Assembly (NCBI GenBank): GCA_016210925.1
Contig: JACQTF010000082.1
Coordinates: 10,002 to 34,001, forward strand
Direction of reading: 5' to 3'
Source: Acidobacteriota bacterium
GTDB taxonomy: Bacteria; Acidobacteriota; UBA6911; JACQTF01
DNA: 24,000 nt
The notes beneath the pieces are model-generated. The model searched no databases. It saw only the letters and a list, made by a program, of their open reading frames with translations, and had not been told where the DNA came from. Position 1 is the stretch's first letter, and each line of letters starts with the position of its first letter. Shown in pieces: positions 201 through 24,000 of the stretch. The translations under genes were made by a program, and so were the position numbers.

Positions 201-241
201 CATGCACCATAGTCTTGCGTACAGTATGGTATCCTCCAACC

Positions 242-5530: not shown

Positions 5531-5586
5531 CCCAGGTGGGTTACTATGCAAGAAGATCCGCGCCCGGGATCGCGGGAGGAAATGGC

Positions 5587-7356: not shown

Positions 7357-7386
7357 CCGGCGAGGCAAGACCATCGCTGGGCAACG

Positions 7387-7530
7387 CTAGGCGATGGGAT
7401 GGGTTGGGCCGTGGCTTTGGATTCTCGCATCGGGTGCCAGCAGGACCTTGTACCATTCCTTGGAGAACTCCTGCGCCAAGCGGGATCGGAACGGTTCCGA
7501 ATCTTGGACGAAACGTACCTTTTCAGCCAT
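7387..7530 (-). CDS. Possible small protein (47 aa) divergent from the mscS gene
   Basis: ATG at 7530 is preceded by GGAGG with a 5-nt spacer. The product is MAEKVRFVQDSEPFRSRLAQEFSKEWYKVLLAPDARIQSHGPTHPIA. By hand count 32 of 47 codons end in G or C. It occupies the 214-nt gap between the permease and mscS. No family is recognised. Confidence 0.3.
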   Translation of the reverse strand: MAEKVRFVQDSEPFRSRLAQEFSKEWYKVLLAPDARIQSHGPTHPIA

Positions 7531-7570
7531 GGTTCCTCCGTGGCCGGTCAAGAGGAGTGAGGGAAGAGTC

Positions 7571-8482
7571 ATGACTTGGGTGGGTCGCTTGGAACGTGTC
7601 TTGTATTTTCGCCTCTTTGACATCGGTGGTCAGGCCATTACCCCGGTCCAGCTGTTGATCTTGGGCCTGGCCCTGGTGGTCACCCTGTACCTGGCGCGGT
7701 GGGTGGGGCGGCTGTCGGAGCAGCGATTGCTGCGCCAGATCGATGTCGGTCCTCGATACACCATCGTCCGATTGACCCAGTACGCCATCTGGGCCATGGG
7801 GATCCTGGTGGCGTTGAAACTGCTCAACATCGACCTGACGGCGCTTGCGGTGGTGGCCGGCGCCTTGGGCGTGGGCATCGGCTTTGGCTTGCAAAACGTG
7901 GTGGCCAATTTCGTCGCGGGTCTCGTTCTGCTTTTTGAGCGGCCCATCAAGGTGAACGATCGGGTGACCATTGAGAATGTGGAGGGGAATGTGGTGGCCA
8001 TCAACTTTCGCTCCACCACCATTGAGACCAACGATAATATCGCCATCATCGTGCCCAACTCGGATTTCATCAATCGCACGGTGATCAACTGGTCGCACGG
8101 AAAGCCCTGGGTGCGGATCCGGGTGCCGGTGGGAGTGGCTTACGGGACCGATGTCCAACTGGTGACGCGCACGCTGCTGGAAGTGGGTGCCGAGACCGAG
8201 GGCGTGATGAAGGAGCCTGCTCCCAAAGTACGATTCAAAGAGTTCGGCGACTCATCGCTCCAATTCGAGCTGCTCGTGTGGACGGATGAGCTGGCACGCC
8301 ACCAGCGGCTGCGGAGCCGCCTCAACTATGCCATTGAAGCCAGCTTCCGGCGCACGGGGATCCAGATCCCGTTTCCGCAGCGGGATCTGCACATCAAATC
8401 GGCCGACGGATTGGCTGGGGCGCTCTCGCACGTCTCAGTGTCGCCAACAGCGCCTCCAGGCAGTGGAAAGGCGACGAGCTGA
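7571..8482 (+). CDS. Small-conductance mechanosensitive channel (MscS family)
   Basis: The MS_channel core is GIGFGLQNVVANFVAGLVLLFERPIKVNDRVTIENVEGNVVAINFRSTTIETNDNIAIIVPNSDFINRTVINW, followed by a C-terminal alpha/beta domain. I chose ATG 7571 (GAGGAG/GAGGGA upstream) because the track start at 7394 adds non-membrane junk. Confidence 0.9.
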   Translation: MTWVGRLERVLYFRLFDIGGQAITPVQLLILGLALVVTLYLARWVGRLSEQRLLRQIDVGPRYTIVRLTQYAIWAMGILVALKLLNIDLTALAVVAGALGVGIGFGLQNVVANFVAGLVLLFERPIKVNDRVTIENVEGNVVAINFRSTTIETNDNIAIIVPNSDFINRTVINWSHGKPWVRIRVPVGVAYGTDVQLVTRTLLEVGAETEGVMKEPAPKVRFKEFGDSSLQFELLVWTDELARHQRLRSRLNYAIEASFRRTGIQIPFPQRDLHIKSADGLAGALSHVSVSPTAPPGSGKATS

Positions 8483-8571
8483 GTTGCTACGAAAATACAC
8501 GCAGCCCCTTGGGGCACGCTCCCGACGAGTTACTCAGGACAAGGCGACCCCCGGAGGTTGAAGGGTGGGCC

Positions 8572-9158
8572 ATGAAGAGCCCTGCTTGGAAGGTGGTCGA
8601 CTGGCTTCAGGGGCAATCCCAAGTGCTCTTGATCGCACTTGGATTCGTCCAGGTGGCAACTATCGGGGTAGTTGACTACTTCACGGGCGCGGAGATTGTT
8701 CTCTCGGTTTTTTATTTAGTCCCCGTTTCTTTGGTCGTCTGGTTTACAGGGAGCTGGCCCGGCGCCGTGATGTCTGCCGCCAGTTGTGCAGCCTGGTTCC
8801 TGGCCGATTCGGTGGGGGGAGCAAGGTTTTCATCAGCTTTTGTTCCTTACTGGAATGCTGGCGTGAGACTGGGGTTTTTCTTGATTGTGACGGTGATGAA
8901 TTCGCTATCCTGCTGCCGGAGATGGGACCTGAGACGGCCCGGCTGGCGATTGACAAGGTTCAGAGGAACCTTTTAGAGGTGATGGAAAAGAACGAATGGC
9001 CCGTCACCTTCAGCATTGGCGTTGTCACGTTCACTGTGCCGCCAGGTTCCGTGGATGAAATGATCCAACGGGCAGATGCTGCGATGTATGGTGCAAAGAA
9101 CCGGGGCAAAAACGGGATTCGGCAGGTGGTGTGGGAGGGATTGCGGCCCACCGCATGA
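8572..9158 (+). pseudogene. Membrane-anchored diguanylate cyclase (GGDEF) gene disrupted by an internal frame-shifting deletion
   Basis: Frame 1 (8572..~8890) encodes a membrane sensor-type N-terminus: VDYFTGAEIVLSVFYLVPVSLVVWFTGSWPGAVMSAASCAAWFLAD. Frame 3 from ~8889 encodes only the distal half of a GGDEF domain: DGDEFAILLPEMGPETARLAIDKV...TFSIGVV...ADAAMYGAKNRGKNGI. The linker and the proximal half of the domain are absent. The junction is near 8888-8892. Confidence 0.7.
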
Positions 9159-9213: not shown

Positions 9214-9897
9214 CTACGGTTTTCCAAATCGCGGATCACGCCAGGCATAGTCCTCGGGTTTTGCCACCGCCTCGTTGATCCATTCGATCACTGCCGCAAA
9301 CCCCAGGCTTTCCAGGTCGTGGCGCAGGTAGTCGGGCACCACGGCCAGGACACGGAAGCCGCGCTTGAGCTGGAAAGACAGGGTGGGATCGGAGAGTTCC
9401 TCGTTGACGACCTTGATCACGTAGTCTTCGGCGCTCATCTGGTGGACGTATCGATGATAGCCTCGCAGCCGCGCCCCTGAGCGGATTCGCAGCAGTCCCA
9501 GGCGCTCCGCCAGGCCTCGCCGGGCTTCGTACAGCTTTGTGCCGATGCCTCTCTGCTGTCGCGACGGCGGTACCATCACATCGGCTCCATAGAGCGTGCG
9601 CCCCCGCTCTGGGTCATGGTTAGTGAACATGCCGTGGTCCGTGAAGTCGCGCCAGCTTGCCTTCAGGTCGTAGTCATCCCACAGGACCATCAGGCTGGCC
9701 GCCATTCCCACAACCCGCTGCGAGACCGACTCCACGGCGACGAACTGTCCTTCCGGAAACACCCTCAAGTGAGAAGCCAGCTGTTCTGCGGTCCAGGGAC
9801 GGGCCATGGGATAGATCTGGCGGCTCATGTCGATGATGGCGGAAAAATCCTCTGGCCGAGTGTTGCGAGCCGCGATTTTGGAACGGGCTCCGGTCAT
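9214..9897 (-). CDS. GNAT-family N-acetyltransferase
   Basis: The acetyl-CoA binding motif is PPSRQQRGIGTKLYEA (Q/RxxGxG/A type) within a GNAT-length fold. The ATG overlaps the stop of the upstream hydrolase gene (ATGA at 9894-9897). Confidence 0.85.
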   Translation of the reverse strand: MTGARSKIAARNTRPEDFSAIIDMSRQIYPMARPWTAEQLASHLRVFPEGQFVAVESVSQRVVGMAASLMVLWDDYDLKASWRDFTDHGMFTNHDPERGRTLYGADVMVPPSRQQRGIGTKLYEARRGLAERLGLLRIRSGARLRGYHRYVHQMSAEDYVIKVVNEELSDPTLSFQLKRGFRVLAVVPDYLRHDLESLGFAAVIEWINEAVAKPEDYAWRDPRFGKP

Positions 9898-10781
9898 ACG
9901 GGAACCACCTCCAGCCGGGACACGATCTCGGCGGTGCGGCGGCTCTCCAGCAAGGGCAGCACGGTGCCTGAGGAGCGGCTCTCCGCGATCGTTTTCAAGT
10001 TGAGTTCGCCGATGACCATCATTTCCTGGTTGGGGTTTCCCTCGGCGAGGATGCCGTCACGCGAGAAAGCGAAATCGCTGGGTGTGACAATGGAAGCCTG
10101 GCCGTAGTTCAAAGAGACGGCCGGCACCATGGGCAGGGATCCCACGGTGGTGGAGTGGATCACGTACATCTGATTTTCGATCGCCCGGGAATGGGCACAG
10201 TAACGAACCCGCAGGAAGCTTTGGCGGTCGTCGGTGCAGCTGGGCACGGCCAGGATGTGGGCGCCCTCCCGCGCTCCGGCCCGGGCAATTTCCGGGAATT
10301 CCACGTCATAACAGATGGCGATCGCCACCTTTCCGAAGTCGGTCTCAAAAACCCGCAGGACGGAGCGCGGCGAGACTTTCCACTCCTCGGTCTCAAAGCG
10401 GGTCATGTGCAGCTTGCCCTGGATGCCGACGTTGCCCGAGGGACCGAAGAAGAAAGAGTCGTTGTAGATCAAGTCCGCGCCGTCGTCCATGACCGGAATG
10501 GTGCCAGCCACGATATAGAGGCGATTCTTTCTGGCCAATTCCCGCATCAGCTCCAGGAAGCGCGGCACCTGTTTGGCCAGATCCCGGATCTGCTCGTTGA
10601 TCGGCCTCTTGACGTTCCCCAGGGTCAACAGCTGGACTGTGAAGTACTCCGGGAACACCAGCAAGTGACACTTGTAGTCCGCCGCCGTGTCGACCAGCGC
10701 TTCCACCTGATCGCGGAACTGATCGAACGTCTGCACCGGCCGGATGAAGTACTGCAGCGAGGCAACACGAATGCGCTCCAT
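9894..10781 (-). CDS. Carbon-nitrogen hydrolase (nitrilase superfamily) protein
   Basis: The Glu-Lys-Cys triad contexts are LLVFPEYF, GKLHMTRFE and VAIAICYDVEFPE. The length of 295 aa fits the family. It is translationally coupled to the GNAT gene. Confidence 0.9.
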   Translation of the reverse strand: MERIRVASLQYFIRPVQTFDQFRDQVEALVDTAADYKCHLLVFPEYFTVQLLTLGNVKRPINEQIRDLAKQVPRFLELMRELARKNRLYIVAGTIPVMDDGADLIYNDSFFFGPSGNVGIQGKLHMTRFETEEWKVSPRSVLRVFETDFGKVAIAICYDVEFPEIARAGAREGAHILAVPSCTDDRQSFLRVRYCAHSRAIENQMYVIHSTTVGSLPMVPAVSLNYGQASIVTPSDFAFSRDGILAEGNPNQEMMVIGELNLKTIAESRSSGTVLPLLESRRTAEIVSRLEVVPV

Positions 10782-11078
10782 GACCTCCCCCTTGCTCGCT
10801 GAATGGTTTGTGTTCGTAACAGGGCCTAAGGTGAAATAATATGGCGAAGGCTGAGTCTTTCCGTTTCGAGCGAGTGTTGGAAGGGTTTGGCTTCGTTCGC
10901 CAGGCCCACTTGCTGTTCCATTCGTTCCGTTCAGAGTCCTTACGGTACCTCAGAGATCTTCCAAAGTCCAGGCCTTGGCTGCCCGGGTCTGCCCGGGTGG
11001 CGTCAAGCTGGAGCCTGTTGCCCAAGTGCCCTTCTGACGTGGGTCGCCCCGGGCGCGGGACCCAGCCGGGCACCAGGT

Positions 11079-11102
11079 TCCCGTTGGGGCGGCCCAACGG
11101 GA
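11079..11102. terminator. GC-rich hairpin just downstream of the small minus-strand ORF
   Basis: CCCGTTGGG-GCGG-CCCAACGGG forms a perfect 9-bp stem, or 10 bp with the flanking T/A pair. It lies 12 nt 3' of the stop at 11114-11116 on the minus strand. A T-rich run (tctttctt) follows only on the plus strand. Confidence 0.3.
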
Positions 11103-11113
11103 TCACCTCTTTC

Positions 11114-11254
11114 TTAGAAGTTGAAATTGGTGCGCAAAGTAGGAATCCACTGCAAGAGGGGCAACCGTTCCTGCGCCGGACGGTCTCGTGCTGTGAGTTT
11201 TCCGCAGGCGAACAACAGGGTGACGGCCACCCTCAGGAGCCTCTTTTGCTTCAT
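11114..11254 (-). CDS. Possible 46-aa lipoprotein
   Basis: ATG at 11254 is preceded by GAGGAGGAAGCC. The product is MKQKRLLRVAVTLLFACGKLTARDRPAQERLPLLQWIPTLRTNFNF, with a basic n-region, a hydrophobic core and a lipobox-like LFAC. A hairpin follows the stop. Confidence 0.35.
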   Translation of the reverse strand: MKQKRLLRVAVTLLFACGKLTARDRPAQERLPLLQWIPTLRTNFNF

Positions 11255-11372
11255 GGCTTCCTCCTCTCCGTTTCGCCTTCGGCCTCGACTCGTCCCCGGG
11301 CGGTTTGGACCCGCCTTTGGGCCGCGTGCGCTCGGACGGAGGGCGGACGTTGCTTGCAGCACCCCCAATGAG

Positions 11373-11455: not shown

Positions 11456-13750
11456 ATGAAAAAGTTCGAGACGGAAGTTCGTTTAAGCCGTGAGATGACC
11501 TTGATGGACGTGACGCTCATTGGCGTCGGTGCCATGATCGGGGCCGGCATTTTCGTCCTGACAGGCATCGCCGCCGGCGTGGCCGGTCCGGCCCTCATCC
11601 TGGCGTTTGCACTCAATGGATTCGTTACTCTCTTCACCGCCATGGCCTACGCCGAGTTGGGGTCCTGCTTCCACGACGCCGGCGGCGGCTATCTGTGGGT
11701 GAAAGAAGGGCTGCCCAAGTGGAACGGATTTCTGGCGGGCTGGATGAGCTGGTTCGCCCACGCCGTGGCGTGCAGTCTGTATGCGCTGGGGTTCGGGGCC
11801 TACTTTGGTCATGTGCTCCAGGAGCTGGGAATCTCGGTGCCTCAGTGGGGATTTCTGTCGCCCCAGAAGATTCTGGCGGCGGCCGTCGCCGTGATCTTTG
11901 CCTATGTCAACTTCAGGGGAGCCTCCGAGACCGGTAAAGTGGGCAACCTGGTGACCGTGGCCAAGATTGTGATCCTGGCCATTTTTATCGGTTTCGGCCT
12001 GGAATTACTGTTCGGTCGAGGGGACTGGAAACAAGCGTTTACCCCCTTCATGCCCAACGGTTGGGGCGGTGTCTTCAGCGCCATGGGGCTGACCTTCATC
12101 GCCTTCGAGGGATACGAGATCATCTCCCAATGCTCCGAGGAAGTCAGGGACCCGAAGAGGAACATCCCCAGGGCGGTCTTTCTCTCCATCCTGATCGTCA
12201 TTCCCATCTATCTTCTGGTGGTGGTCACCGCCCTGGGGGCGGTCCAGCCGGAAAACACGACCCCCTGGGATTACCTGGCCTTGCACAAGGAGCTGGCCCT
12301 GGTGCGGGTGGCCGAAACTTTCTTCGTGGGCGGGGGCCTGATGATCCTGGTGGGCGGCCTGGTCTCCACCATGTCGGCCTTGAATGCCACCATCTATTCT
12401 TCCTCCAGGGTGGCCTTTGCCATGGGGCGAGATCGGAACTTCCCCACCCTCTTCAGCCGGGTCCACCGCAAACAATTTACGCCTCACTGGGCCATCTTGG
12501 TCTCACTGGCGATCATCCTGTTGATGGCCTTCTCTCTGCCCATCGAGGACGTGGCCAGCGCCGCCGACATCATGTTCTTGCTTCTGTTTCTGCAAGTCAA
12601 CGCCGCCTTGATTCCTCTTCGGAAGAAGAGACTGGACCTGGACCGGGGATTTGTGACGCCCTGGTTGCCGTGGATCCCCATCGTGGGGATCGCCACCCAG
12701 TTGGCGCTGGCCCTTTACATGTTCAAGTACAGCCCGACGGCGTGGGTGGTCACCGCGGGATGGATCGCCCTGGGGCTGGTGATCTACAAGCAATACGCTT
12801 CGGGCAGAGAAATCGAACACGCGCGAAAGGTGAGGGCGCTGGAGCGCCTCGAGGAACGCCAGTATCGGATCCTGGTCTGCGCCTCGAAACCTGGGACGAT
12901 GCGAAGTCTGACCAGCGTCGCCATGGCGGTGGCGAAAAAGTTCCGGGGAGAGATCATCTTCTTGCATGTCATCGAGGTCAAGGAGGGCCAGCCGCTCATG
13001 GCCGGTCTCACTGAGACGACCCGCGTCCAACCCCTTTTCGAGGAAGCCCAGTCCCTGGTGGAGGAATCGGGGATATCCTCTCGCTCTCTTCTCAAGGTGT
13101 CCCATCGCATCTCCCAGGGCATCGTGGAGACCGCCCGCGAAGAAGAGTGCAACTTCCTCATCATGGGGAGGCAGAAGCATCCCTCGTTTCTGGAGAGATT
13201 TTTTTCCTCCGTGATCGACAGCGTGATTCAGAGATCTCCCTGCGAGGTGGCGGTCCTGCACGGCGACCTGTTGCGCGACGGCGTCCGCCAGATCTTCATT
13301 CCCTTTGGCGAGAACATCCACACGCGCCTGGCCCTGGAGATGGCGCCGACCTTGGTCGCCTACTTCCAGTGCCGGCTCAGGGTGGCCATGGTCCTGGATC
13401 CCGATCTGTCCCCTGCCCACAAGGAGCGAATGCGGGCGGGCGTCAAAGCACTCCTGGAGAAGAACGCCGTCCCTGCCCAACTGGAGGTCGTGGAAGACAC
13501 CGACGTGCTGCGGGCCGTGGTGCAGCGGTCGAGGGACGCCGATTTGATTCTCATGGGTGGACGATCGGGCGATTTTCTGGAGCTGTTCCTGGGATCCTCC
13601 TTGACCCAGGAGATCACGGAGCGGACAGCGAGTCCCGTATTGTGGCTCCGAGAGTACCAGGAACGAGGATCTTTTTGGGCTTCTCTTTTGAGGGCGCCCA
13701 GGCAGGAGGAAAACCAACATGGACAGCGCGATGAAGGAAGTGTTGATTAA
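11456..13750 (+). CDS. APC-superfamily amino acid permease fused to two C-terminal universal stress protein (Usp) domains
   Basis: The N-terminus LMDVTLIGVGAMIGAGIFVLTGIAAGVAGPALILAFALNG is typical of APC permeases, and about 12 TM segments follow. Two Usp-like units come next: YRILVCASKP...NFLIMGRQKH...SPCEVAVLHG and RQIFIPFGEN...ADLILMGGRSG...ASPVLWL. Confidence 0.92.
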   Translation: MKKFETEVRLSREMTLMDVTLIGVGAMIGAGIFVLTGIAAGVAGPALILAFALNGFVTLFTAMAYAELGSCFHDAGGGYLWVKEGLPKWNGFLAGWMSWFAHAVACSLYALGFGAYFGHVLQELGISVPQWGFLSPQKILAAAVAVIFAYVNFRGASETGKVGNLVTVAKIVILAIFIGFGLELLFGRGDWKQAFTPFMPNGWGGVFSAMGLTFIAFEGYEIISQCSEEVRDPKRNIPRAVFLSILIVIPIYLLVVVTALGAVQPENTTPWDYLALHKELALVRVAETFFVGGGLMILVGGLVSTMSALNATIYSSSRVAFAMGRDRNFPTLFSRVHRKQFTPHWAILVSLAIILLMAFSLPIEDVASAADIMFLLLFLQVNAALIPLRKKRLDLDRGFVTPWLPWIPIVGIATQLALALYMFKYSPTAWVVTAGWIALGLVIYKQYASGREIEHARKVRALERLEERQYRILVCASKPGTMRSLTSVAMAVAKKFRGEIIFLHVIEVKEGQPLMAGLTETTRVQPLFEEAQSLVEESGISSRSLLKVSHRISQGIVETAREEECNFLIMGRQKHPSFLERFFSSVIDSVIQRSPCEVAVLHGDLLRDGVRQIFIPFGENIHTRLALEMAPTLVAYFQCRLRVAMVLDPDLSPAHKERMRAGVKALLEKNAVPAQLEVVEDTDVLRAVVQRSRDADLILMGGRSGDFLELFLGSSLTQEITERTASPVLWLREYQERGSFWASLLRAPRQEENQHGQRDEGSVD

Positions 13751-14375
13751 TGTGACCAGAGCCCTGGTGGGCTATTTGCCCAATCTGTTCGTGGGCCTGG
13801 TGTTGATTGCCATCGGCTGGCTGATGGCATGGGTGGTGAAACGGGTCGTGGTCCAACTGTCCAGAATTCTGAGGGTGGACCGTTTTTTCAGGAGATTTGG
13901 CTGGCGGGAGGGCCTAGCCAAGGCCGATGTTCGGTACGCGCTTTACAATTTCTTCGGAAGCATTGCGTTCGTGGTGGTGTTCGCGATCTTTCTCATCGAT
14001 GCCCTTCGGGCCATGAAACTCGCCATGGTCTCCAGCCTCTTGGAAAAGGGCGTCTTCTTCCTGCCCAGTTTGATCGCATCGCTGATCATCTTTGGAGTGG
14101 GATGGCTCATCTCGTGGCGCGCCGCCCTGGCCATGCAACGGATTCTCATGAGGGAGGAGATCCCGCGGCCCACCTTGATCGCGCGTTTCATCCAGGTGTT
14201 GTTGCTGCTCTTTTTCTCCGCCATGGCCCTGGTGGAGCTCTCCATCGCTCGGGAGATCGTGATCATCGGGTTTACCACCGCCTTCCTGACCATCGGGGTG
14301 CTGACCATTGTGTTGACTGCCCGAGGAGGCAAGGCGTTCGTCGCTGCTCTCTCCAGGTCCCGGGAGGAGGAATAG
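13719..14375 (+). CDS. Small membrane protein with repeated conserved TM-helix motif (MscS-N-terminal-like TM_helix repeat protein)
   Basis: AGGAGGA lies 9 nt before ATG 13719. The gene overlaps the permease 3' end by 32 nt. An internal repeat is visible: YLPNLFVGLVLIAIGWLMAWVVKRVV vs FLPSLIASLIIFGVGWLISWRAALAM. It is a paralogue of 20992..21696. Confidence 0.75.
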   Translation: MDSAMKEVLINVTRALVGYLPNLFVGLVLIAIGWLMAWVVKRVVVQLSRILRVDRFFRRFGWREGLAKADVRYALYNFFGSIAFVVVFAIFLIDALRAMKLAMVSSLLEKGVFFLPSLIASLIIFGVGWLISWRAALAMQRILMREEIPRPTLIARFIQVLLLLFFSAMALVELSIAREIVIIGFTTAFLTIGVLTIVLTARGGKAFVAALSRSREEE

Positions 14376-15028: not shown

Positions 15029-15865
15029 GTGGCTCGTCAAATGAGCGAACTGGGAACTGACAGCGTGAGCTCGTCGCTGAGAAATGCCATGGAGGAAGTC
15101 AGGCGACTGAGATCTCTTGTGAACCGCACGCTGCCGTTGCTGGACGCAGCGCGTCGCGGGCGACTTCTGGAAGCGGCCTCCCTGATCCGAAAGAATCCCA
15201 GGGTGCTTCAAGAGATGCACCAAGGGCTTAAGCGCTTGGTGGACGCCCGGAGCATGCCGCGCGCAGAGCAGGACATCAAGGAAGCCATCGCGGAGGCCAA
15301 GCTCAAATACAAGGATGCTCTCGAGAGAGCTTTCGCGAAGGCCGGGATCTCCTTTACCGGCGTCTGGCCTACTTATTTGCTTTGGGATGCCTTGGAGCTG
15401 CAGGTTGATCTGGACAGAGAGCGAGTTCGGATCGTCACGGGACGGTTGCCCTCCCTCGACATCCCGCAGATCGTCAGGACAAGCCGTCGACTCCTGGAGG
15501 AGTTGCTGGCCCGGCCTTTTGATCCAGCGGCGTTTGCAACGATCCTGGCGGGGGCCTACAGGAGGGCTCTGGACGCCCAGGGAGGCGACTGGGGCGACTA
15601 TGTGGAGATCCGGAAGCTTTTTCAAAAGCTGGCCCAACGGTGCGGGCCCAGCTACACGATCCGCTACTTCGCCATCGATCTGTTCCGTCTCTTCCGAGCC
15701 TCGTGTGCAGAAAGCGTGCCCGTGGTGGTGGAGCTAAGACCGGCAGGCGCCCCTGCTTCGGGGATCTTCGTGGCGACATCGTGCGGCGGCTACATCGGCG
15801 GCGTTGCAATTCGCCCGTTGACAACCATGGTGCAGTTGGGGGTTCCAGCCCCGAACGGCGTCTGA
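15029..15865 (+). CDS. Hypothetical protein (helical N-terminal half, unrecognised C-terminal domain)
   Basis: This is the only protein-like ORF in this region. The start is GTG 15029 or ATG 15041. Composition is balanced (e.g. YVEIRKLFQKLAQRCGPSYTIRYFAIDLFRLF). I recognise no motif. Confidence 0.55.
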   Translation: MARQMSELGTDSVSSSLRNAMEEVRRLRSLVNRTLPLLDAARRGRLLEAASLIRKNPRVLQEMHQGLKRLVDARSMPRAEQDIKEAIAEAKLKYKDALERAFAKAGISFTGVWPTYLLWDALELQVDLDRERVRIVTGRLPSLDIPQIVRTSRRLLEELLARPFDPAAFATILAGAYRRALDAQGGDWGDYVEIRKLFQKLAQRCGPSYTIRYFAIDLFRLFRASCAESVPVVVELRPAGAPASGIFVATSCGGYIGGVAIRPLTTMVQLGVPAPNGV

Positions 15866-16130: not shown

Positions 16131-16491
16131 TCACTTCAGTTGGGGGTATCGCGGACCCAGGAGGGCCTGGTCTCCAAGCTCTTAGGGATCTCGCCTTCGG
16201 TGGGAAGATAGAGGCGGGCCTCGGGCCATCGGATCCTGGTCCACGATCATCCTCTGGCCCTGTGGTTACACCGACCGGGAAGCCTTGCGGCGATCCTGGG
16301 TGGCGCGCCCGCGTCTCGCTCCCTTTCCCTGATAGGGGATCTTCGCACTTCCGGCTGGCCAGGGCATGGCCCTGTGAGCCGCCTGGGGACGGCTGGAGGA
16401 TGGGTTTTCGGCACCCATTCGGGACGGAGAGCTGCGGGGGGGTGCCTCGCCGAAGGGCCACCTGGATGGTTCTCGAAAGGAGGTGAAGGGG

Positions 16492-17571
16492 ATGACCGAA
16501 ATTCTCGGATGGCAGATCCCGCTGAGGCCGCTGCTGGCGGTCCCGTTGGTGGCGGCGATCGTGGCTGGGATTGGGCTGTTTTTGCGCAAGTTTGCGCTGG
16601 GCTTTCTGCGGCGGTGGTCCCAGCGAACGGCGACTGATTTCGATGATCTGCTCGTTGCCTTTCTAGAGAAGCTTGCATCGCCCCTGGCGGTCCTCGCGGT
16701 GATTTTCGTTTTGTTGAACTCCTTTGCTCTGCCGGCCAAAATCGTCCGTCCGGGGAACCGAATTCTGCAGGCGGTGACGTTGGGCTTAGCCCTCTTCTTC
16801 TTCGCCAAGTTGGTGATCCTTTACGTCCAGCGGCTGGCTCAGCGCAAGGAGGCGATGCGCAACATCGCGGGTCCCCTCCAGGGGGTGACCAAGGTGGTGT
16901 TTGCCCTGGTGGGGGTCCTGGTGGTTTTTGAAAACCTGGGCGTCTCCATGACGGCCCTGTGGACCACCCTGGGTGTGGGCAGCGTGGCCATTGCCCTGGC
17001 ACTGCAGGACACGCTGAGCAATTTTTTTGCCGGCCTCTACATCCTGGTGGACAGCCCCATTCGGCTGGACGACTACGTGAAGCTGGAGACCGGGGAGGAA
17101 GGCTATGTGCAGCGAATTGGATGGCGATCGACCCGTATTCGAACCCTGCCCAATAACGTGGTGGTGGTTCCCAATGCGCGGCTGTCCCAGGCCATCGTGA
17201 CCAATTATTTCCTCCCCGAGAAGCGGATGTCGCTTTTGATCCCCATCGGGGTGAGTTACGAAAGCGATCCAGTGAAGGTGGAGCGCCTGTTGGTCGAGGA
17301 GACGAAGAAAGCCGCGGGGGAGATTCCAGGCCTCCTGGCGGAGCCCGCGCCCTTCGTTCGCTTCATCCCCGGCTTTGGAGATTCTTCCCTGAACTTCACC
17401 TTGATTTGCCAGGTAGCGGAGTTCGTGGATCAGTACCTGGTCCAGCACGAACTCCGAAAGCGCATTTTCGCCCGGTTCCAGAGGGAAGGCATCGAAATTC
17501 CGTTCCCCATCCGGACGGTCTACTTGAGGACAAAGGAAGAAGCCGGCGGAACTCAACAAGCTGCGACTTAG
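16492..17571 (+). CDS. Small-conductance mechanosensitive channel (MscS family), second copy
   Basis: The MS_channel core is ALALQDTLSNFFAGLYILVDSPIRLDDYVKLETGEEGYVQRIGWRSTRIRTLPNNVVVVPNARLSQAIVTNY. ATG 16492 lies 8 nt after GAAAGGAGG; the track start GTG 16483 sits inside the SD. Confidence 0.9.
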   Translation: MTEILGWQIPLRPLLAVPLVAAIVAGIGLFLRKFALGFLRRWSQRTATDFDDLLVAFLEKLASPLAVLAVIFVLLNSFALPAKIVRPGNRILQAVTLGLALFFFAKLVILYVQRLAQRKEAMRNIAGPLQGVTKVVFALVGVLVVFENLGVSMTALWTTLGVGSVAIALALQDTLSNFFAGLYILVDSPIRLDDYVKLETGEEGYVQRIGWRSTRIRTLPNNVVVVPNARLSQAIVTNYFLPEKRMSLLIPIGVSYESDPVKVERLLVEETKKAAGEIPGLLAEPAPFVRFIPGFGDSSLNFTLICQVAEFVDQYLVQHELRKRIFARFQREGIEIPFPIRTVYLRTKEEAGGTQQAAT

Positions 17572-17629
17572 GCCATCGGTGGCTACCGGGAGGGGGGAAG
17601 GAGGGGGGTAGTTTCAGCGGAGAAACATC

Positions 17630-18853
17630 ATGGCGGATTTCTACCAGACCGGGGTGGTTGCCACCTTGCATCGCCTCGTCAGGACGGGGCACGAGGCCCT
17701 GGAGCGGGGACTGCTGAAGTATTCGGCCCAGCGGCCCATCGCCCTGGTGCTGCCGGCTCTGTACAGCGAATTTGAGGGCGAGGCCATGCCCAGGATCATC
17801 CAGGAGTTGAAGCACGTGAAATATCTTCGGCAGATCGTGGTCACCATGGACGGAGCGGACCCCGCCCAATATGCCCGCGCCCGCCGCATGATGTCGGGTC
17901 TGCCGCAAGGAGTGAAGTTTGTTTGGAACAACGGACCTCGCGTTCAGGCCTTGTACGACAAACTTCAGGAGAATGACCTTCCGGTGGGTGGGAGCGGGAA
18001 GGGGCGTTCTTGCTGGATGGCGTATGGCTACGTGCTGGCCAGCCGTGAGAGCGACGTCATCGTGCTTCATGACTGCGACATCCTCACCTACGATCGAGAA
18101 CTGCTGGCCCGACTCTGCTACCCTGTGGCCAATCCGGACATCAACTTCGAATTCTGCAAGGGGTACTATGCCCGCGTGACGGACCGCATGCATGGCCGGG
18201 TGACGCGATTGCTGGTCACGCCCCTCATCCGCTCCCTGGAGAAGATATTCGGTCATCTTCCCTTCCTGGTGTTCCTGGACAGCTTCCGTTATCCCCTGGC
18301 GGGCGAGTTCTCCATGAGGGCGGACCTGGCGCGGTCCAATCGCATTCCGGCCGACTGGGGCCTGGAAGTGGGTGTCCTGGCAGAGATCTATCGCAACTGC
18401 GCCATCAAACGGGTCTGCCAGGCTGAACTCTGCGACAACTACGAGCACAAGCACCAACCCCTGTGTCAGGGCGACCCATCCAAAGGCCTGATGAAGATGG
18501 CGGTGGACATCACCAAGACGCTGTTCCGAACCCTGTCGGCGGAGGGTGTGGTGTTTACCTCCGGCGCGTTCCGCACGATGCAATCCGCCTACGTCCGAAC
18601 GGCGGAGGATACCATCACGCGCTATCACGCTGACGCTTTGATCGACGGCCTCTACTTTGACCGTCATGAGGAGGAGGTCGCCGTCGAGACCTTCGTTCAG
18701 GCCATTCGGTTGGCTGCCGAGTCTTTCACGGAGGATCCGCTGGGCGCTCCCCTCATCCCCAACTGGAACCGGATCACGGCGGCGCTGCCCGGGTTCTTGG
18801 ATGAGCTGAAAGAGGCGGTGGAGTTGGACAACGCCGAGGGAGCCGCTGGTTGA
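17630..18853 (+). CDS. gpgS: Glucosyl-3-phosphoglycerate synthase-type glycosyltransferase (GpgS/MpgS family, GT-A fold)
   Basis: The N-terminus MADFYQTGVVATLHRL, the DxD context VIVLHDCDILTY, the ~400-aa length and the immediately coupled MpgP-family phosphatase match my recollection of the archaeal, Persephonella and cyanobacterial GpgS type. The sugar donor (Glc vs Man) cannot be read from the sequence. Confidence 0.7.
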   Translation: MADFYQTGVVATLHRLVRTGHEALERGLLKYSAQRPIALVLPALYSEFEGEAMPRIIQELKHVKYLRQIVVTMDGADPAQYARARRMMSGLPQGVKFVWNNGPRVQALYDKLQENDLPVGGSGKGRSCWMAYGYVLASRESDVIVLHDCDILTYDRELLARLCYPVANPDINFEFCKGYYARVTDRMHGRVTRLLVTPLIRSLEKIFGHLPFLVFLDSFRYPLAGEFSMRADLARSNRIPADWGLEVGVLAEIYRNCAIKRVCQAELCDNYEHKHQPLCQGDPSKGLMKMAVDITKTLFRTLSAEGVVFTSGAFRTMQSAYVRTAEDTITRYHADALIDGLYFDRHEEEVAVETFVQAIRLAAESFTEDPLGAPLIPNWNRITAALPGFLDELKEAVELDNAEGAAG

Positions 18854-19689
18854 GATCGTCTGGGAAGTTGATCATCTACACCGATCTGGACGGGACGTTC
18901 CTGGACCACGAGACCTATTCGTGTTCTGCGGCCTTGCCTGCCCTCCGGGCCGCCACCGCCAGAGCCATTCCCGTCGTCTTCTGTTCCAGCAAGACGCTGG
19001 CCGAGACGGAGGTCATTCGGAAGCAGGTAGGGGCGCGGGATCCCTTCATTGTGGAGAACGGCGGCGCGGTCTACGTGCCCCGGAATTACTTTCCCTTCGG
19101 CATTCGCCGGAGCGTTCAGCGTGGCGACTTTGAGGTGGTGGAGTTGGGAACGCCCTACCCAAGGTTGGTCGAGGCACTTCGGCGCCTGCGGGAGGACCTT
19201 CCCTGCCGCTTTCTGGGGTTCCACGACATGACGGAAGAAGAGGTGGCGGCCGATGCCGGCTTGACTTTGGCTGAAGCGCAGCGGGCCAAGGAGCGGGAAT
19301 ACGATGAGGCATTCAAGATCGTCGGCGCGGATCCCGCGGTGGTGGGGGTGGTCCTGGCAAGGATCGAAGAAGCCGGTTTACGGTACACCAGGGGTGGGCG
19401 ATACTATCATCTGCTGGGTGACCATGACAAAGGGCGCGCCGTCCGCATTCTCAACGACCTGTTTAGGAGGGCCCACGGCTCCATTGTCACGGTTGGTCTG
19501 GGTGACACCTTAAACGATTTGCCCATGCTGGAGGCCGTGGATCTGCCGGTCGTGGTGAAAAAGGCGGATGGCGACCACGACCGGTCCGTTATCGGGCGTT
19601 TGCCACAGGTACGGCTGGCCCCTGGGGTTGGCCCTCGAGGCTGGGAGGCGGCCGTGAGGGAGATCCTGGCGGAAAGGGTTGGCGCCTAG
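18850..19689 (+). CDS. HAD-IIB phosphatase of the mannosyl-3-phosphoglycerate phosphatase (MpgP/YedP) family
   Basis: LIIYTDLDGTFLDHETYS...IPVVFCSSKTLAE...FIVENGGAVY...GLGDTLNDLPMLEAVD closely resembles YedP/MpgP. Only TTG starts are available (18850 overlapping the gpgS stop as TTGA, or 18868). GAGGGAG lies 8 nt before 18850. Confidence 0.85.
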   Translation: MRSSGKLIIYTDLDGTFLDHETYSCSAALPALRAATARAIPVVFCSSKTLAETEVIRKQVGARDPFIVENGGAVYVPRNYFPFGIRRSVQRGDFEVVELGTPYPRLVEALRRLREDLPCRFLGFHDMTEEEVAADAGLTLAEAQRAKEREYDEAFKIVGADPAVVGVVLARIEEAGLRYTRGGRYYHLLGDHDKGRAVRILNDLFRRAHGSIVTVGLGDTLNDLPMLEAVDLPVVVKKADGDHDRSVIGRLPQVRLAPGVGPRGWEAAVREILAERVGA

Positions 19690-19710
19690 CACGGACTCTC
19701 TGCAGGCACG

Positions 19711-20976
19711 ATGGCTGGTGAATCGCTGCTACCGGACGAGGTTCAACGGCGCATTCGAGAGATCGGTCGCGTTGACGTCGTGGTGGGGATCCCCAGCTAC
19801 AACAGCGCCCGCACCATCTCCCACGTGGTGCGGGCGGTCCACGCGGGTTTTGCCAAATATTTTCCCCACCAGCAGGCCCTGCTGGTCAACTCCGACGGCG
19901 GGTCCGGCGACGGCACGCCGGATCTGGTTCGGCAGCCGGCCATCAGCGACTATCGCACGCTGCTGACTGCCCATCCGCTCCACGCCCTCCACAAGATCGT
20001 CACGCCCTATCATGGGATTCCCGGGAAGGGCAGTGCGCTGCGGACGGTTTTCAAAATCGCCGCTGAGCTTGGGGCGAAGGCCTGCGCGGTGGTCGATGCG
20101 GATCTCCGCAGCATTACGCCCGAGTGGGTGGACCTCCTCGTGAGCCCCGTCTTAAAGGAAGGATTTGACTTCGTTGCGCCACTCTATCACCGGCACAAGT
20201 ATGACGGCACCATCACCAACAGCATCGTGTACCCCCTCACACGGGCGCTCTACGGCCAGCGCGTCCGACAGCCCATTGGCGGGGACTTCGGCCTCTCGGG
20301 CCGTCTGGCTGAGCATTATGTGTCGCAGGACGTGTGGCACACGGACGTCGCTCGCTTTGGCATAGACATCTGGATGACCACCACGGCCATCACAGGGGGC
20401 TTCAGGATCTGCCAGTCTTTTCTGGGGGCCAAGATCCACGATGTCAAAGACCCGGCTGTAGATTTGAGCGCCATGCTCACACAAGTGGTCAGCTCGGTCT
20501 TCGGATTGATGGAAACCTACGAGGCCCATTGGACCAAGGTCCGCGGCTCGACCTCAGTGCCGGTCTTTGGATTCGAATACACCGTGGGCCTGGAACCCAT
20601 CCGGGTCAATGTGGAGCGGATGATCCACAGCTTTCACGCCGGCCTGCGAGACTTGGTGCCCCTGTGGGAAGGGATTCTGGCCAGGGAGACCCTGGAGGGG
20701 ATCCGGCGGGTGGGTAGCCTCTCGGGAGAGACGTTTCGGTTTCCCCCTGACCTGTGGGTTCGGACGGTGTACGACTTTGCGATCGCCTACCACAAACGTG
20801 TGATCAACCGCGAGCACTTGCTCAGGTCCCTCACGCCCCTCTATCTGGCGCGCACCGGCTCCTTCGTCCTGGAGACGCCCGAGGCCACCGCGGGAGAAGT
20901 GGACGAGATCTTGGAAAAGCTTTGTCAGGAGTACGAATCTTTCAAACCCGATCTCATTGAACGCTGGCAATCCTGA
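19711..20976 (+). CDS. GT-A fold (GT2-like) glycosyltransferase with a long helical C-terminal extension; candidate second glycosyl transfer onto glycosyl-(phospho)glycerate
   Basis: Evidence includes VVVGIPSYNSARTISHVV near the N-terminus, the DxD context AVVDADLRSITPEW, and the 421-aa length. The gene lies 21 nt after the phosphatase gene. Confidence 0.85.
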   Translation: MAGESLLPDEVQRRIREIGRVDVVVGIPSYNSARTISHVVRAVHAGFAKYFPHQQALLVNSDGGSGDGTPDLVRQPAISDYRTLLTAHPLHALHKIVTPYHGIPGKGSALRTVFKIAAELGAKACAVVDADLRSITPEWVDLLVSPVLKEGFDFVAPLYHRHKYDGTITNSIVYPLTRALYGQRVRQPIGGDFGLSGRLAEHYVSQDVWHTDVARFGIDIWMTTTAITGGFRICQSFLGAKIHDVKDPAVDLSAMLTQVVSSVFGLMETYEAHWTKVRGSTSVPVFGFEYTVGLEPIRVNVERMIHSFHAGLRDLVPLWEGILARETLEGIRRVGSLSGETFRFPPDLWVRTVYDFAIAYHKRVINREHLLRSLTPLYLARTGSFVLETPEATAGEVDEILEKLCQEYESFKPDLIERWQS

Positions 20977-20991
20977 GGAAGGAGGTGAAGG

Positions 20992-21696
20992 ATGGAAAGT
21001 GCGTTCACGGAAGCATTGTTGACGACCTTGAAAAGGTTCTACGAGGGAGCGATGCAATTTCTGCCCAGTCTTCTGGCCGCCTTGGTCATCATCGTTGCTG
21101 GCTGGGCCATGGCCTGGGCATCCAAGTTGGTCGTCCGTCGCGCCCTCCTGATCGCCAAATTCGACCACTTCTGCGCCAACGCTGGCGCCAGCCAAGTGCT
21201 GAGCCGGGCCGACATCCACGCCCCTCCTTCCACAGTGGTGGGCCGGTCGGTCTTCTGGCTGGTGTGGGTTGTCTTTCTCATGACGGGAGTGAGCGCCCTG
21301 GGCTTGGAGGTGTTCAACCGGCTCATCTCTGAATTTTTTCTGTACTTGCCCCAGGCCTTCGCCGCAGTGTTGATTCTCCTGCTGGGATTCTTGATCGGCA
21401 ATTTTCTTTCCCGGGCGGCGCTGCTGGCGGCGGTGAACGCCCAGGTCGCTTCGCCTCGCATCATCAGCAGCATGGTGAGATTCCTGATTACCATCCTGGC
21501 CTCCGCCATGGCCCTGGAGCAGCTTCACATTGCCAGAAACATCGTCGTGGCTGCCTTTGCCATCGCTTTTGGCGCCGTCATGCTGGGACTGGCCATCGCC
21601 TTCGGGCTGGGCGGACGGGAGGTGGCGCGGCACGTGCTCGAGCAGCGCTTCCTGCAAAAGAAAGGGGAAGAGCCGGACGAATTTTCGCACATTTGA
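20992..21696 (+). CDS. Small membrane protein with repeated conserved TM-helix motif, paralogue of 13719..14375
   Basis: GGAAGGAGG precedes ATG 20992, 15 nt after the glycosyltransferase stop. The repeats are FLPSLLAALVIIVAGWAMAWASKLVVRRAL and YLPQAFAAVLILLLGFLIGNFLSRAALLAAV. It has the same length class and topology as 13719..14375. Confidence 0.75.
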   Translation: MESAFTEALLTTLKRFYEGAMQFLPSLLAALVIIVAGWAMAWASKLVVRRALLIAKFDHFCANAGASQVLSRADIHAPPSTVVGRSVFWLVWVVFLMTGVSALGLEVFNRLISEFFLYLPQAFAAVLILLLGFLIGNFLSRAALLAAVNAQVASPRIISSMVRFLITILASAMALEQLHIARNIVVAAFAIAFGAVMLGLAIAFGLGGREVARHVLEQRFLQKKGEEPDEFSHI

Positions 21697-21842: not shown

Positions 21843-22916
21843 ATGGCTGAGGTGGCGGTGGAAGAGCTCTACAAGATTTTCCCCGACCACGTGGTGGCGG
21901 TGGATGGTGTGAGCTTTCACGTGAGAGACCGGGGGTTCCTCACCCTTCTCGGTCCTTCCGGATGCGGCAAGTCCACCATCTTGCGCCTGATCGCAGGATT
22001 GGAGAAGCCCAGCTCCGGCAAGGTCTACGTGGACGGCAGGCTCGTCAACGACCAGCATCCCGCCGACAGAGACGTCGCCATGGTGTTTCAGAGCTATGCC
22101 CTGTACCCTCACATGAACTGCTTCGACAATATGGCGGTCCACTTGAAACTGCGGAAGGTCCCCAGGGAGGAGATCCAAAGGAGGACGAGGGAAACGGCTC
22201 GGTTGTTGGGAATCGAGAACCTGTTGCACAGGAAGCCCAAAGCGCTCAGCGGAGGCCAGCGCCAGCGAGTGGCGCTGGGGCGTGCCATCGTAAGACAACC
22301 CAAGGCGTTCCTCTTGGATGAGCCCCTAAGCAACTTGGACGCCATCCTCCGGGAGCGAATGCGGGGGGATCTGAAGGCACTGTTTTCCGCCATGGGGGCC
22401 ACCGTCATCTACGTGACCCACGATCAGGTCGAAGCCATGACCATGTCCGACACCATCGCCGTCGTGAGGGCAGGCAAGATCCAGCAGATTGGCTCGCCAG
22501 CGGAGATCTATCATAATCCTGCCAACGTGTTCGTCGCTCAGTTCGTGGGGAGCCCGCGCATGAATTTTCTCCGCTGCACGATCGAGAGCGGAAGGCTAAC
22601 CTTCGGCCGTCACGACCTTCCCCTTCCCCGTGCCGTGGTGAGTACAGTGGGCCTGCCTGCAAACGTCCTGTTGGGTATTCGACCTGAGCACCTGACAGTC
22701 TTGCGGGAAGCAACGCCGGGCGCCCTGGAAGCTCAGGCTGATCTGTGCGAACCTCTGGGTGCCTTTACCATTCTACATTTGAGATTGGGAGAAAATGCGA
22801 TCGCGGCTCTGGTTACGCCGGAGGATGCCCAGATGGGAGGAAGGAGGTGGGTCGAGTTCCATGGGGGAAAAATCCATCTTTTCGATCCGGCGACCGAAGA
22901 ACGGTTGAAGTATTAA
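21843..22916 (+). CDS. ABC transporter ATP-binding protein, MalK/UgpC/MsmX sugar-importer type
   Basis: Walker A is GPSGCGKST, the Q-loop MVFQSYALYPH, the signature LSGGQRQRVALGRA, Walker B FLLDEPLSNLD and the H-loop YVTHDQ. A C-terminal regulatory (TOBE-like) extension is present. Confidence 0.93.
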   Translation: MAEVAVEELYKIFPDHVVAVDGVSFHVRDRGFLTLLGPSGCGKSTILRLIAGLEKPSSGKVYVDGRLVNDQHPADRDVAMVFQSYALYPHMNCFDNMAVHLKLRKVPREEIQRRTRETARLLGIENLLHRKPKALSGGQRQRVALGRAIVRQPKAFLLDEPLSNLDAILRERMRGDLKALFSAMGATVIYVTHDQVEAMTMSDTIAVVRAGKIQQIGSPAEIYHNPANVFVAQFVGSPRMNFLRCTIESGRLTFGRHDLPLPRAVVSTVGLPANVLLGIRPEHLTVLREATPGALEAQADLCEPLGAFTILHLRLGENAIAALVTPEDAQMGGRRWVEFHGGKIHLFDPATEERLKY

Positions 22917-22938: not shown

Positions 22939-24000
22939 GTGAAGCTCAGGACGTTTTTTTATGGCATGGGCATAGGAGCCCTGGTCATTGCCGCTGCTGC
23001 GATGGGTTGGACGTTTCTGGCGGGACCAGGGGCGCGGGAGGGGGGAAGGGCGGGGCAGAAGGTGGTCATCTCGGCCCTGATGCACGTGGACATTACGGGT
23101 GCCTGGCACGAACTGGTGGCGCGGTTTAACGAAGAAAATCCCGACGTCGAGATGCATTACATCGAGGGGCCGTGGTCGACCGATACCAGGGAGGCGCTCT
23201 ATACGACATCCTTTCTGGCGGGCGAGTCTCCCTATGACATGGTCTTCATGGACGTGATCTGGGTCCCCAAATTTGCGGCAGCCGGGTGGTTGGAAGATTT
23301 GACCGATTGGTTGCCTCCCGAGCAGTGGAAGGAATTTCTGCCTGGCGACCTGGAAGGGAGCAAGCATCAGGGGAGGATCTATCGGGTGCCGATGTATTCC
23401 GACGTGGGCATGCTCTTCTATCGCCGGGACCTCTTGGAGGCGGCTGGGCTGGAACCACCCACGACCTGGCAGGACTTGATCGTGATGGCACAGAAGCTGC
23501 AAAAGCCGCCCCAGCTCTGGGGTTATGTTTGGCAGGGGAAGCAGTACGAGGGGTTGAGCTGTAACCTGCTGGAGGTCTTGCAGGGCTTCGGAGGATCTTG
23601 GGTGGATCCGGTCACCCAAGAGGTCGGACTTGATCAGCCCGAAGCCGCAGCGGCCTTGCAGTTGATGCACGACCTGATCCACAAACACAAGATATCGCCT
23701 CCCGGGGTCACTACGTATCAAGAAGAGGAAGCAAGACAAATCTTTCAAAGCGGGAACGCCGTCTTTCAGCGAAACTGGCCTTATGCTTGGGTATTGGCTC
23801 ACCAGGAACAATCTCCCGTAAAAGGGAAAGTAGGAATGGCTCCCATGGTGAGCCAAAAGGGACAAGACGGTTCAGGGGCCCAAGGCGGATCAGGCTTCGG
23901 AATTTACAAGTACAGCAAACACAAACGGGCGGCGTGGAGGTTCATTGTGTTCGCCACGAGTTCCAGGGCCCAGAAGTTCCTTCACCTCCAGGAGGGGCGG
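22939..24000 (+). CDS. Extracellular solute-binding protein (family 1, sugar type), 3'-truncated by the window end
   Basis: It is absent from the ORF track because it has no stop in the window. My hand translation in frame 1 from GTG 22939 (GGGAGG 11 nt upstream; alternative ATG 22966) gives VKLRTFFYGMGIGALVIAAAAMGW (signal/anchor) ...DMVFMDVIWVPKFAAAGWLEDLT...RVPMYSDVGMLFYRRDLLEAAGL...WQGKQYEGLSCNLLEVL...NWPYAW. The frame is open to nt 24000. Confidence 0.85.
   Translation, partial: MKLRTFFYGMGIGALVIAAAAMGWTFLAGPGAREGGRAGQKVVISALMHVDITGAWHELVARFNEENPDVEMHYIEGPWSTDTREALYTTSFLAGESPYDMVFMDVIWVPKFAAAGWLEDLTDWLPPEQWKEFLPGDLEGSKHQGRIYRVPMYSDVGMLFYRRDLLEAAGLEPPTTWQDLIVMAQKLQKPPQLWGYVWQGKQYEGLSCNLLEVLQGFGGSWVDPVTQEVGLDQPEAAAALQLMHDLIHKHKISPPGVTTYQEEEARQIFQSGNAVFQRNWPYAWVLAHQEQSPVKGKVGMAPMVSQKGQDGSGAQGGSGFGIYKYSKHKRAAWRFIVFATSSRAQKFLHLQEGR

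Follow-up and report, generated by a model that had tools for sequence, protein, structure and literature searches.

A predicted glucosylglycerate gene cluster of an Acidobacteriota genome with two types of synthase and a small PF05552 membrane protein

The gene cluster and its layout

A stretch of 24,000 nucleotides (nt) from an Acidobacteriota metagenome-assembled genome (MAG), here called the window and numbered from its first letter, carries five closely spaced open reading frames (ORFs) on the + strand that appear to serve the synthesis of a glycosyl-glycerate solute (16483/16492-17571, 17630-18853, 18850-19689, 19711-20976 and 20992-21696). An earlier note on this DNA had listed these ORFs, their junctions and the genes for an ATP-binding cassette (ABC) importer that follow them, and all are present as it stated. 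The note had further proposed that the second glycosyltransferase of the cluster, encoded at 19711-20976, adds a second hexose to the product of the first. We prefer a different reading, to which we assign a probability of roughly 0.68: the cluster combines the two known pathways for making glucosylglycerate, or a closely related hexosyl-glycerate, one of them through the enzyme pair GpgS and GpgP and the other through an enzyme of the Ggs type. The features of the cluster and of the importer genes are as follows.

16492..17571, + strand: MscS-family mechanosensitive channel (PF21088, PF00924 and PF21082 all above cut-offs)
17630..18853, + strand: predicted GpgS of the Methanococcoides/Persephonella type, GT81-like, 407 amino acids (NF040724, E 1.4e-107)
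18850..19689, + strand: HAD-IIB phosphatase of the MpgP/GpgP family, 279 amino acids, TTG start (TIGR01486, 231 bits)
19711..20976, + strand: predicted single-step glycosyl-glycerate synthase of the Ggs/MGS type, 421 amino acids (fold, PF21969, active site)
20992..21696, + strand: small membrane protein, 234 amino acids, with PF05552 repeats alone (47.8 bits)
21843..22916, + strand: UgpC/MalK-type ATPase of a CUT1 sugar ABC importer (NF008653, E 1.6e-125)
22939..24000, + strand: solute-binding protein of an ABC importer, cut by the window end (SBP_bac_1, E 1.2e-53)

Read from the sequence, the junctions between the five ORFs are in order a gap of 58 nt, an overlap of 4 nt (TTGA), a gap of 21 nt and a gap of 15 nt. 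The ORF of the channel opens with a GTG at 16483, and the ATG at 16492, which stands behind GGAGG, is the likelier start. The TTG start of the phosphatase overlaps the stop of the GpgS gene as TTGA, and the small membrane protein begins 15 nt after the glycosyltransferase, behind AGGAGG. The ORFs, their junctions and the family assignments given below support the claim that this is a tightly packed glycosyl-glycerate solute unit, and the genes of the cluster are presumably co-transcribed. Because the same neighbours recur in dozens of unrelated genomes, where the 19711-type glycosyltransferase is paired with a PF05552 protein and also adjoins GpgS and a HAD phosphatase, the linkage of these genes goes beyond chance. 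Scans of the window with Rfam and for tRNA genes returned no matches.

Two candidate routes to glucosylglycerate

The GpgS-type synthase and the MpgP-type phosphatase that had been recognized at 17630 and 18850 are supported by profile searches. The 17630 protein matches NF040724 (GpgS_Meth) over its full length, with residues 3-402 on profile positions 2-400 of 402, at a score of 360 bits that lies under the equivalog cut-off of 700, and its translation contains the GKG, HDCD and R...GRVT motifs. Its best sequence matches in the PDB are mycobacterial GpgS proteins, and its solved relatives are solely GpgS and MpgS of GT81, whereas the Pfam scan gave no match to the GT55 family (Osmo_MPGsynth); the question of GT81 versus GT55 is thus answered in favour of a GT81-type enzyme. 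Orthologs that are 55-67% identical to it adjoin the 19711-type glycosyltransferase in many loci. On these sequence grounds the protein is a GT81-like GpgS of the Methanococcoides/Persephonella type, predicted to transfer glucose from NDP-glucose to 3-phosphoglycerate. The 18850 protein exceeds the cut-off of TIGR01486 (164.75), stays just below that of the osmo-MPG phosphatase equivalog TIGR02461 (240.1 against 244.35) and carries the HAD motifs DLDGT and GDTLND. MpgP and GpgP phosphatases act on both substrates, and an MpgP-type enzyme can serve as GpgP (PMC3240985, Table 3). The 17630 and 18850 enzymes are sufficient for a two-step glucosylglycerate route, in which GpgS would join NDP-glucose to 3-phosphoglycerate and the phosphatase would strip the phosphate.

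The 19711 protein is of another build. In Pfam it matches PF21969 (MGS_GT) at 32.7 bits against a gathering cut-off of 27, it weakly matches the actinobacterial GpgS model PRK13915 (E 3.8e-13), and its best single-sequence match in the PDB is the mannosyl-3-phosphoglycerate synthase (MpgS) of Rubrobacter. We built an AlphaFold2 model from 43 homologs (pLDDT 85.7), and the top PDB matches of this model in Foldseek are the mannosylglycerate synthase (MGS) structures 2y4k and 2bo4, with an E of 1.5e-16 over about 400 columns and TM-scores of 0.70/0.76. GpgS and MpgS structures align to the GT-A part alone, at about 1e-9, so that the MGS match is better by about seven orders of magnitude. Since the model aligns with MGS over its full length, what had been described as a long helical tail is the MGS C-terminal domain. 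These matches also bear on the view that the 19711 enzyme is unrelated to GpgS: judged from sequence and fold, it is a distant GpgS relative in the same GT81/GT78 group. The suggested comparison with MggA comes out negative, because MggA is a GT4 enzyme with the GT-B fold (PMC3736172) and the 19711 protein is a GT-A enzyme with the two-domain build of MGS. Pfam and NCBIfam scans found no GT4, Glycos_transf_1 or NF041101 (MggS) match in it, and its assignment as an MggA- or MggS-like enzyme can be ruled out as the wrong fold and family. The generic source name, which makes it a cell-wall GT2 enzyme, is likewise incompatible with its fold, active site and context.

The active site of MGS is retained in this protein. 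In a profile alignment, K106, D129/D131, R161, T169, D219 and H243 fall on K76, D100/D102, R131, T139, D192 and H217 of MGS, and all of them are invariant in every clade of the family (about 87 sequences from many phyla). We take the MGS counterparts to be ligands of the nucleotide sugar, of the metal (DXD and His) and of the glycerate carboxylate (Arg and Thr), and their numbering is consistent with our alignment. Outside the two search motifs, the positions invariant in all clades are K106, D129, D131, R133, T169, N170, D219, K241, H243, K246 and D247, and there is hence no sign of changed chemistry in the clade of the window. The 19711 enzyme is therefore most likely, as far as sequence and model can tell, a single-step synthase of the Ggs/MGS type, predicted to make glucosylglycerate from NDP-glucose and D-glycerate, with glycerate as its presumed acceptor. 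In this second route the sugar would be moved straight onto free D-glycerate, with a metal bound by the DXD motif and the His and with the Arg/Thr pair holding the carboxylate of glycerate. The premise that a synthase and a phosphatase leave a third enzyme without a role overlooked this single-step route.

The family of the 19711 enzyme is large. It comprises 752 clusters at 50% identity with E <= 1e-30, and a genome scan found its two core motifs in at least 599 species genomes. A protein identical to the one encoded at 19711 is on record from an Acidobacteria MAG. JGI gives the name 'glucosylglycerate synthase' to several homologs that are about 70% identical to the 19711 protein, and the NCBI record 'MAG: glucosylglycerate synthase [Thermococcaceae]' is a member of the family as well; a paper on a Thermococcus genome likewise has a GT81 'Glucosylglycerate synthase' in its list (PMC8790579). 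A profile search seeded with low-GC members returned mostly Aminicenantes. One seeded with a member from the Thermococci found representatives in Pyrococcus furiosus, P. abyssi, Thermococcus and Palaeococcus that are 74-80% mutually identical. The neighbourhood of the P. furiosus gene (locus L091, 7001-8158) is uninformative on function, and another member, P0230, has housekeeping neighbours only. Fused members also occur (P0126, P0131, P0174 and P0136): they include fusions to GpgS, one of them with an inserted Usp domain, and one fusion to TrkA_N.

Gene neighbourhoods were compared in 86 non-redundant loci of the family, which a rough neighbour-joining tree divides into two broad groups. The more distant clades, from Thermotogota, Chloroflexota, Armatimonadota-like genomes and KSB1, are 38-48% identical to the 19711 protein. 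At 15 of their 45 loci the neighbour of the glycosyltransferase is a GT4 enzyme with a full-length match to NF041101 (mannosylglucosylglycerate synthase); in Thermotogota, with a Petrotogales MAG among the cases, this match scores 402-438 bits. A glycerate 2-kinase, present in 11 of the 86 loci, is frequent where this MggS-like GT4 occurs, as are a GH38 MngB-like hydrolase and an RpiR regulator. In the non-phosphorylating route of Petrotoga, glucosylglycerate arises from ADP-glucose and D-glycerate by the action of GgS and is then mannosylated by MggS (PMC3736172). By analogy, the more distant loci fit the layout expected of such a GgS-then-MggS route.

The clade of the window, defined by at least 55% identity, covers Acidobacteriota, Nitrospirota, Desulfobacterota, Aminicenantes, Zixibacteria and Nitrospinota, and no strong MggS-like GT4 is present in its loci. 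GpgS lies within 3 kb of the glycosyltransferase in 18 of 41 of these loci, in shuffled orders such as GpgS-HAD-GT-TM and GpgS-GT-TM-HAD, where GT is the glycosyltransferase and TM the membrane protein. About half of the loci have neither GpgS nor a phosphatase within 8 kb of the pair formed by glycosyltransferase and membrane protein, so the 19711-type enzyme is independent of an adjacent GpgS. In the nearest loci from Acidobacteria, the synthase is 66-72% identical to that of the window and the membrane protein 49-66%, with values of 43-46% for GpgS and 30-32% for the phosphatase; synthase and membrane protein, being better conserved, look like a stable module. The GpgS of the window is itself 60-67% identical to GpgS from loci with a more remote synthase (55-63% identical to that of the window), and only 43-46% identical to GpgS from the loci with the closest synthases (L008-L010 compared with L021-L030, L050 and L080). 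This pattern suggests that a GpgS/phosphatase module and a synthase/membrane-protein module came together more than once.

Seven loci of the family (L036, L053, L055, L056, L070, L075 and L081), from Nitrospirota, Thermodesulfovibrionales and a Syntrophorhabdaceae MAG (L053), place the synthase/membrane-protein pair directly after a TreY-like maltooligosyl-trehalose synthase. A GH57 gene lies about 3 kb upstream in four of them. Here again the pair is embedded among compatible-solute or glucan genes.

Characterized systems offer several points of comparison. Persephonella marina reportedly has an operon-like gpgS-gpgP-ggs cluster for two-step and single-step synthesis, described in work of Costa and of Fernandes in 2007, and recombinant Ggs activities are said to have been described by Fernandes in 2007 and 2010. 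Going by predicted functions, the window has the same three enzyme types, namely a Methanococcoides-type GpgS, an MpgP-like HAD phosphatase and a further glycosyltransferase, with Ggs in P. marina said to make glucosylglycerate from ADP-glucose and D-glycerate. It differs in the PF05552 gene after the synthase, the MscS gene upstream and the ABC genes downstream, and its host is an acidobacterial MAG, whereas P. marina is a thermophile of the Aquificota. With the GgS-MggS route of Petrotoga mobilis (PMC3736172) the link is through relatives of the 19711 protein in Thermotogota, including the Petrotogales MAG, which lie one gene from an MggS-like GT4. In contrast, no MggS- or MggA-like GT4 adjoins the cluster of the window, which thus gives no indication of a second sugar. 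The MGS of Rhodothermus marinus (GT78; 2bo4, 2y4k) shares the two-domain build and the DXD, His, Lys and Arg/Thr residues, but is only 18-19% identical and has T, A, S and E where the 19711 protein has R133, H162, K163 and R186. Taken together, the cluster is a known kind of system with one new accessory, the PF05552 membrane protein.

The earlier note proposed that the 19711 enzyme attaches a second hexose, which would make glucosyl-3-phosphoglycerate or glucosylglycerate the acceptor and glucosyl-glucosylglycerate or mannosylglucosylglycerate the product, and several observations speak in favour of this. The gene is repeatedly and tightly linked to GpgS of two types in shuffled orders, fusions with GpgS exist in both domain orders, and extra invariant basic residues, relative to MGS, stand by the acceptor loop. 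The second transfer in glucosyl-glucosylglycerate synthesis is, as far as we are aware, still without an assigned gene. In addition, P. marina accumulates glucosyl-glucosylglycerate, according to work cited in PMC5381378. However, the known second-sugar enzymes MggA and MggS belong to GT4 (PMC3736172; NF041101), unlike this GT-A enzyme of MGS build, and the invariant Arg/Thr pair for the carboxylate fits glycerate or 3-phosphoglycerate as the acceptor rather than a glycoside. Moreover, relatives with an identical active site adjoin a separate MggS-like GT4, which would be the second-transfer enzyme, and the gene often occurs with no GpgS or phosphatase within 8 kb. Family members of two organisms are reported to have been assayed as glucosylglycerate synthases, which also counts against a second transfer. 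Nothing that we found points to a di-hexosyl product, and we regard this proposal as unsupported and unlikely.

A little less probable still is a role of the 19711 protein as another phosphorylating synthase, similar to MpgS, that would join 3-phosphoglycerate to another sugar (e.g. mannose) and share the MpgP-type phosphatase, such that the cluster would produce two mono-hexosyl-glycerates. The Rubrobacter MpgS match, the similarity to the actinobacterial GpgS model, the basic residues, which could bind phosphate, and the acceptance of both substrates by MpgP/GpgP phosphatases (PMC3240985, Table 3) are all consistent with this idea. It is countered by the full-length fold, which is that of the non-phosphorylating MGS by the margin given above, and by the many loci in which the gene has no HAD phosphatase nearby; furthermore, the neighbours of the gene in other loci include glycerate 2-kinase and MggS, a user of unphosphorylated glucosylglycerate, and these point to free glycerate. 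The most improbable of the alternatives is that the protein mainly activates or scaffolds GpgS, as the glycosyltransferase of Thermoproteus tenax does for trehalose synthase/phosphatase. A precedent exists in that case, where a glycosyltransferase activates a solute synthase in an operon with a mechanosensitive channel (PMC3634074), and the GpgS fusions, together with those that carry the regulatory domains Usp or TrkA_N, could be read in the same way. Yet all catalytic and metal-binding residues are invariant among the sequences compared, and the gene frequently has no GpgS nearby.

Several points weigh against the reading that the cluster holds both routes to glucosylglycerate. The invariant basic residues R133, H162, K163 and R186 could mean that the acceptor is more anionic than glycerate. 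Three cluster representatives have the 19711-type enzyme fused to a bona fide GpgS of the actinobacterial PRK13915 type, in both domain orders, and fusion would sooner be expected of enzymes for successive steps than of enzymes for parallel routes. We know of no report of glucosylglycerate as a solute of Thermococcales, and these organisms nevertheless carry the gene. Orthology to the characterized Ggs rests on source names, fold and context. The donor sugar is one that we infer, as specificity is not readable from sequence. Finally, a scan of the unit for promoter and terminator consensus sequences gave counts at chance level, with none at the junctions, and the structural model of the 20992 protein, built from a two-sequence alignment, has a pLDDT of 49 and is unusable.

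The PF05552 membrane protein and the putative genes for release and uptake

The protein encoded at 20992 consists of PF05552 repeats as its sole content, matched in two stretches. It also matches NF033912 ('msc') in three stretches at 72 bits, under the cut-off of 100. In a Pfam scan it has neither PF00924, the pore-lining helix and beta domain, nor PF21082, the C-terminal vestibule. Hydropathy and motifs indicate some five hydrophobic helices, and the acidic C-terminus, which is conserved, ends in H-[LI].

In the clade of the window, about 35 of 38 loci encode a PF05552 protein directly 3' of the synthase, whether or not GpgS is nearby, and in the order GpgS-GT-TM-HAD it stands between the synthase and the phosphatase. 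A partner was counted when it was on the same strand and within -60 to +450 nt of the synthase, in loci with enough downstream sequence; an ORF-based search with hidden Markov models found 31, and tblastn added L009, L010, L040 and L044. Outside this clade, only one of 43 loci has such a partner. A literature search on proteins with PF05552 alone returned nothing relevant, and the near-obligate pairing of the synthase with such a protein appears to be unreported. The window holds a paralog of this kind at 13719-14375 (+), which is 31% identical to the 20992-21696 protein and overlaps by 32 nt the end of a gene for an amino-acid permease-Usp fusion (region 11456-14375). This paralog is the second case in the window of a PF05552-only protein coupled to an osmo-related gene.

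Channel genes packed with solute-synthesis genes have precedents, for example ectABCD-mscS of Nitrosopumilus maritimus. The tpsp-GT-MSC genes of T. tenax (PMC3634074) likewise pack a channel-type gene with genes for solute synthesis. In both of these cases the channel differs from the conserved partner seen here, which is a 234-residue protein with PF05552 alone and no full MscS. By analogy with T. tenax, we favour the 20992 protein as a putative tension-gated valve for solute release or a tension-sensing regulator. Residing at the membrane, it may act as a small release valve that opens under tension, or it may supply the synthase with an input from membrane tension. A bolder version of this idea is that the synthase and the stand-alone PF05552 protein form a two-gene module in the clade of the window, comprising either a dedicated minimal tension-gated valve or a tension sensor that switches the synthase; we put it forward tentatively, as an idea that is probably wrong in this strong form. 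In a still less likely variant, the acceptor of the synthase would be glucosyl-3-phosphoglycerate, which would make it the missing second-transfer enzyme for glucosyl-glucosylglycerate.

The genes that flank the five-gene unit agree in their family matches with what had been claimed for them, namely a true MscS upstream, a PF05552 membrane protein downstream and then part of a sugar-type ABC importer. The 16483-17571 protein additionally matches the MscK/MscS models of NCBIfam with E values of 1e-20 to 1e-29. The ATPase, 146 nt from the membrane protein gene, has ABC_tran, OB_MalK and TOBE_2 domains, and the binding protein, which begins at about 22939, also matches SBP_bac_8 (1.6e-25). No ABC permease genes lie within the window, and any such genes would be found past its end. 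Of the 86 related loci, only 3 have an MscS gene near the synthase, and about 14 have a MalK-type ATPase within 8 kb of it, at varying positions. Hence, the MscS and the importer would be lineage-specific additions rather than conserved neighbours. The idea of a complete set for synthesis, release and re-uptake is plausible for this genome, but these counts show that the set is not a conserved unit.

Genomic surroundings and implications

The rest of the window resembles an osmoadaptation island, into which the MscS and the ABC importer fit. At 215-4449 (+) lies a trehalose block with OtsA (GT20), OtsB, a DUF5752 protein and a TreT-like GT4, whose frames overlap at each junction. This GT4, at 3211-4449, is the only one in the window; it scores 396 bits against NF041139 (TreT-like), under the cut-off, and has no NF041101 match. 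As a hidden second-sugar enzyme it can be dismissed, being TreT-like and part of the OtsA-OtsB-DUF5752 group 15 kb upstream. In joining a trehalose synthase/phosphatase to an additional glycosyltransferase, the block is reminiscent of the TPSP-GT complex of T. tenax (PMC3634074). Farther along, the region 5446-8482 (+) encodes a CitMHS/DASS-type anion transporter with two TrkA_C domains and, 38 nt behind it, another MscS (7394-8482), the second pair of transporter and channel in the island. Overlapping genes for a GNAT acetyltransferase and a carbon-nitrogen hydrolase at 9214-10781 (-) are the only annotated genes of the minus strand. Three ORFs on the + strand (15029-15865, 8509-8976 and 10841-11371) have no Pfam match, and the first two have no NCBIfam match either. 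The first of these, of 278 amino acids and just upstream of the cluster, has no counterpart in the related loci L001-L090.

Our analysis implies that a third glycosyltransferase gene in a GpgS/GpgP cluster does not by itself signify a di-hexosyl solute, which should guard against mis-annotation. Because the Ggs-type enzyme is widespread, single-step synthesis of glucosylglycerate may be far more common than the two characterized cases suggest. The near-obligate pairing with the synthase provides a handle on the poorly understood proteins that contain PF05552 alone, and on how the synthesis of charged solutes is coupled with their release. If true, the module of synthase and PF05552 protein would represent an undescribed link between membrane state and solute synthesis.

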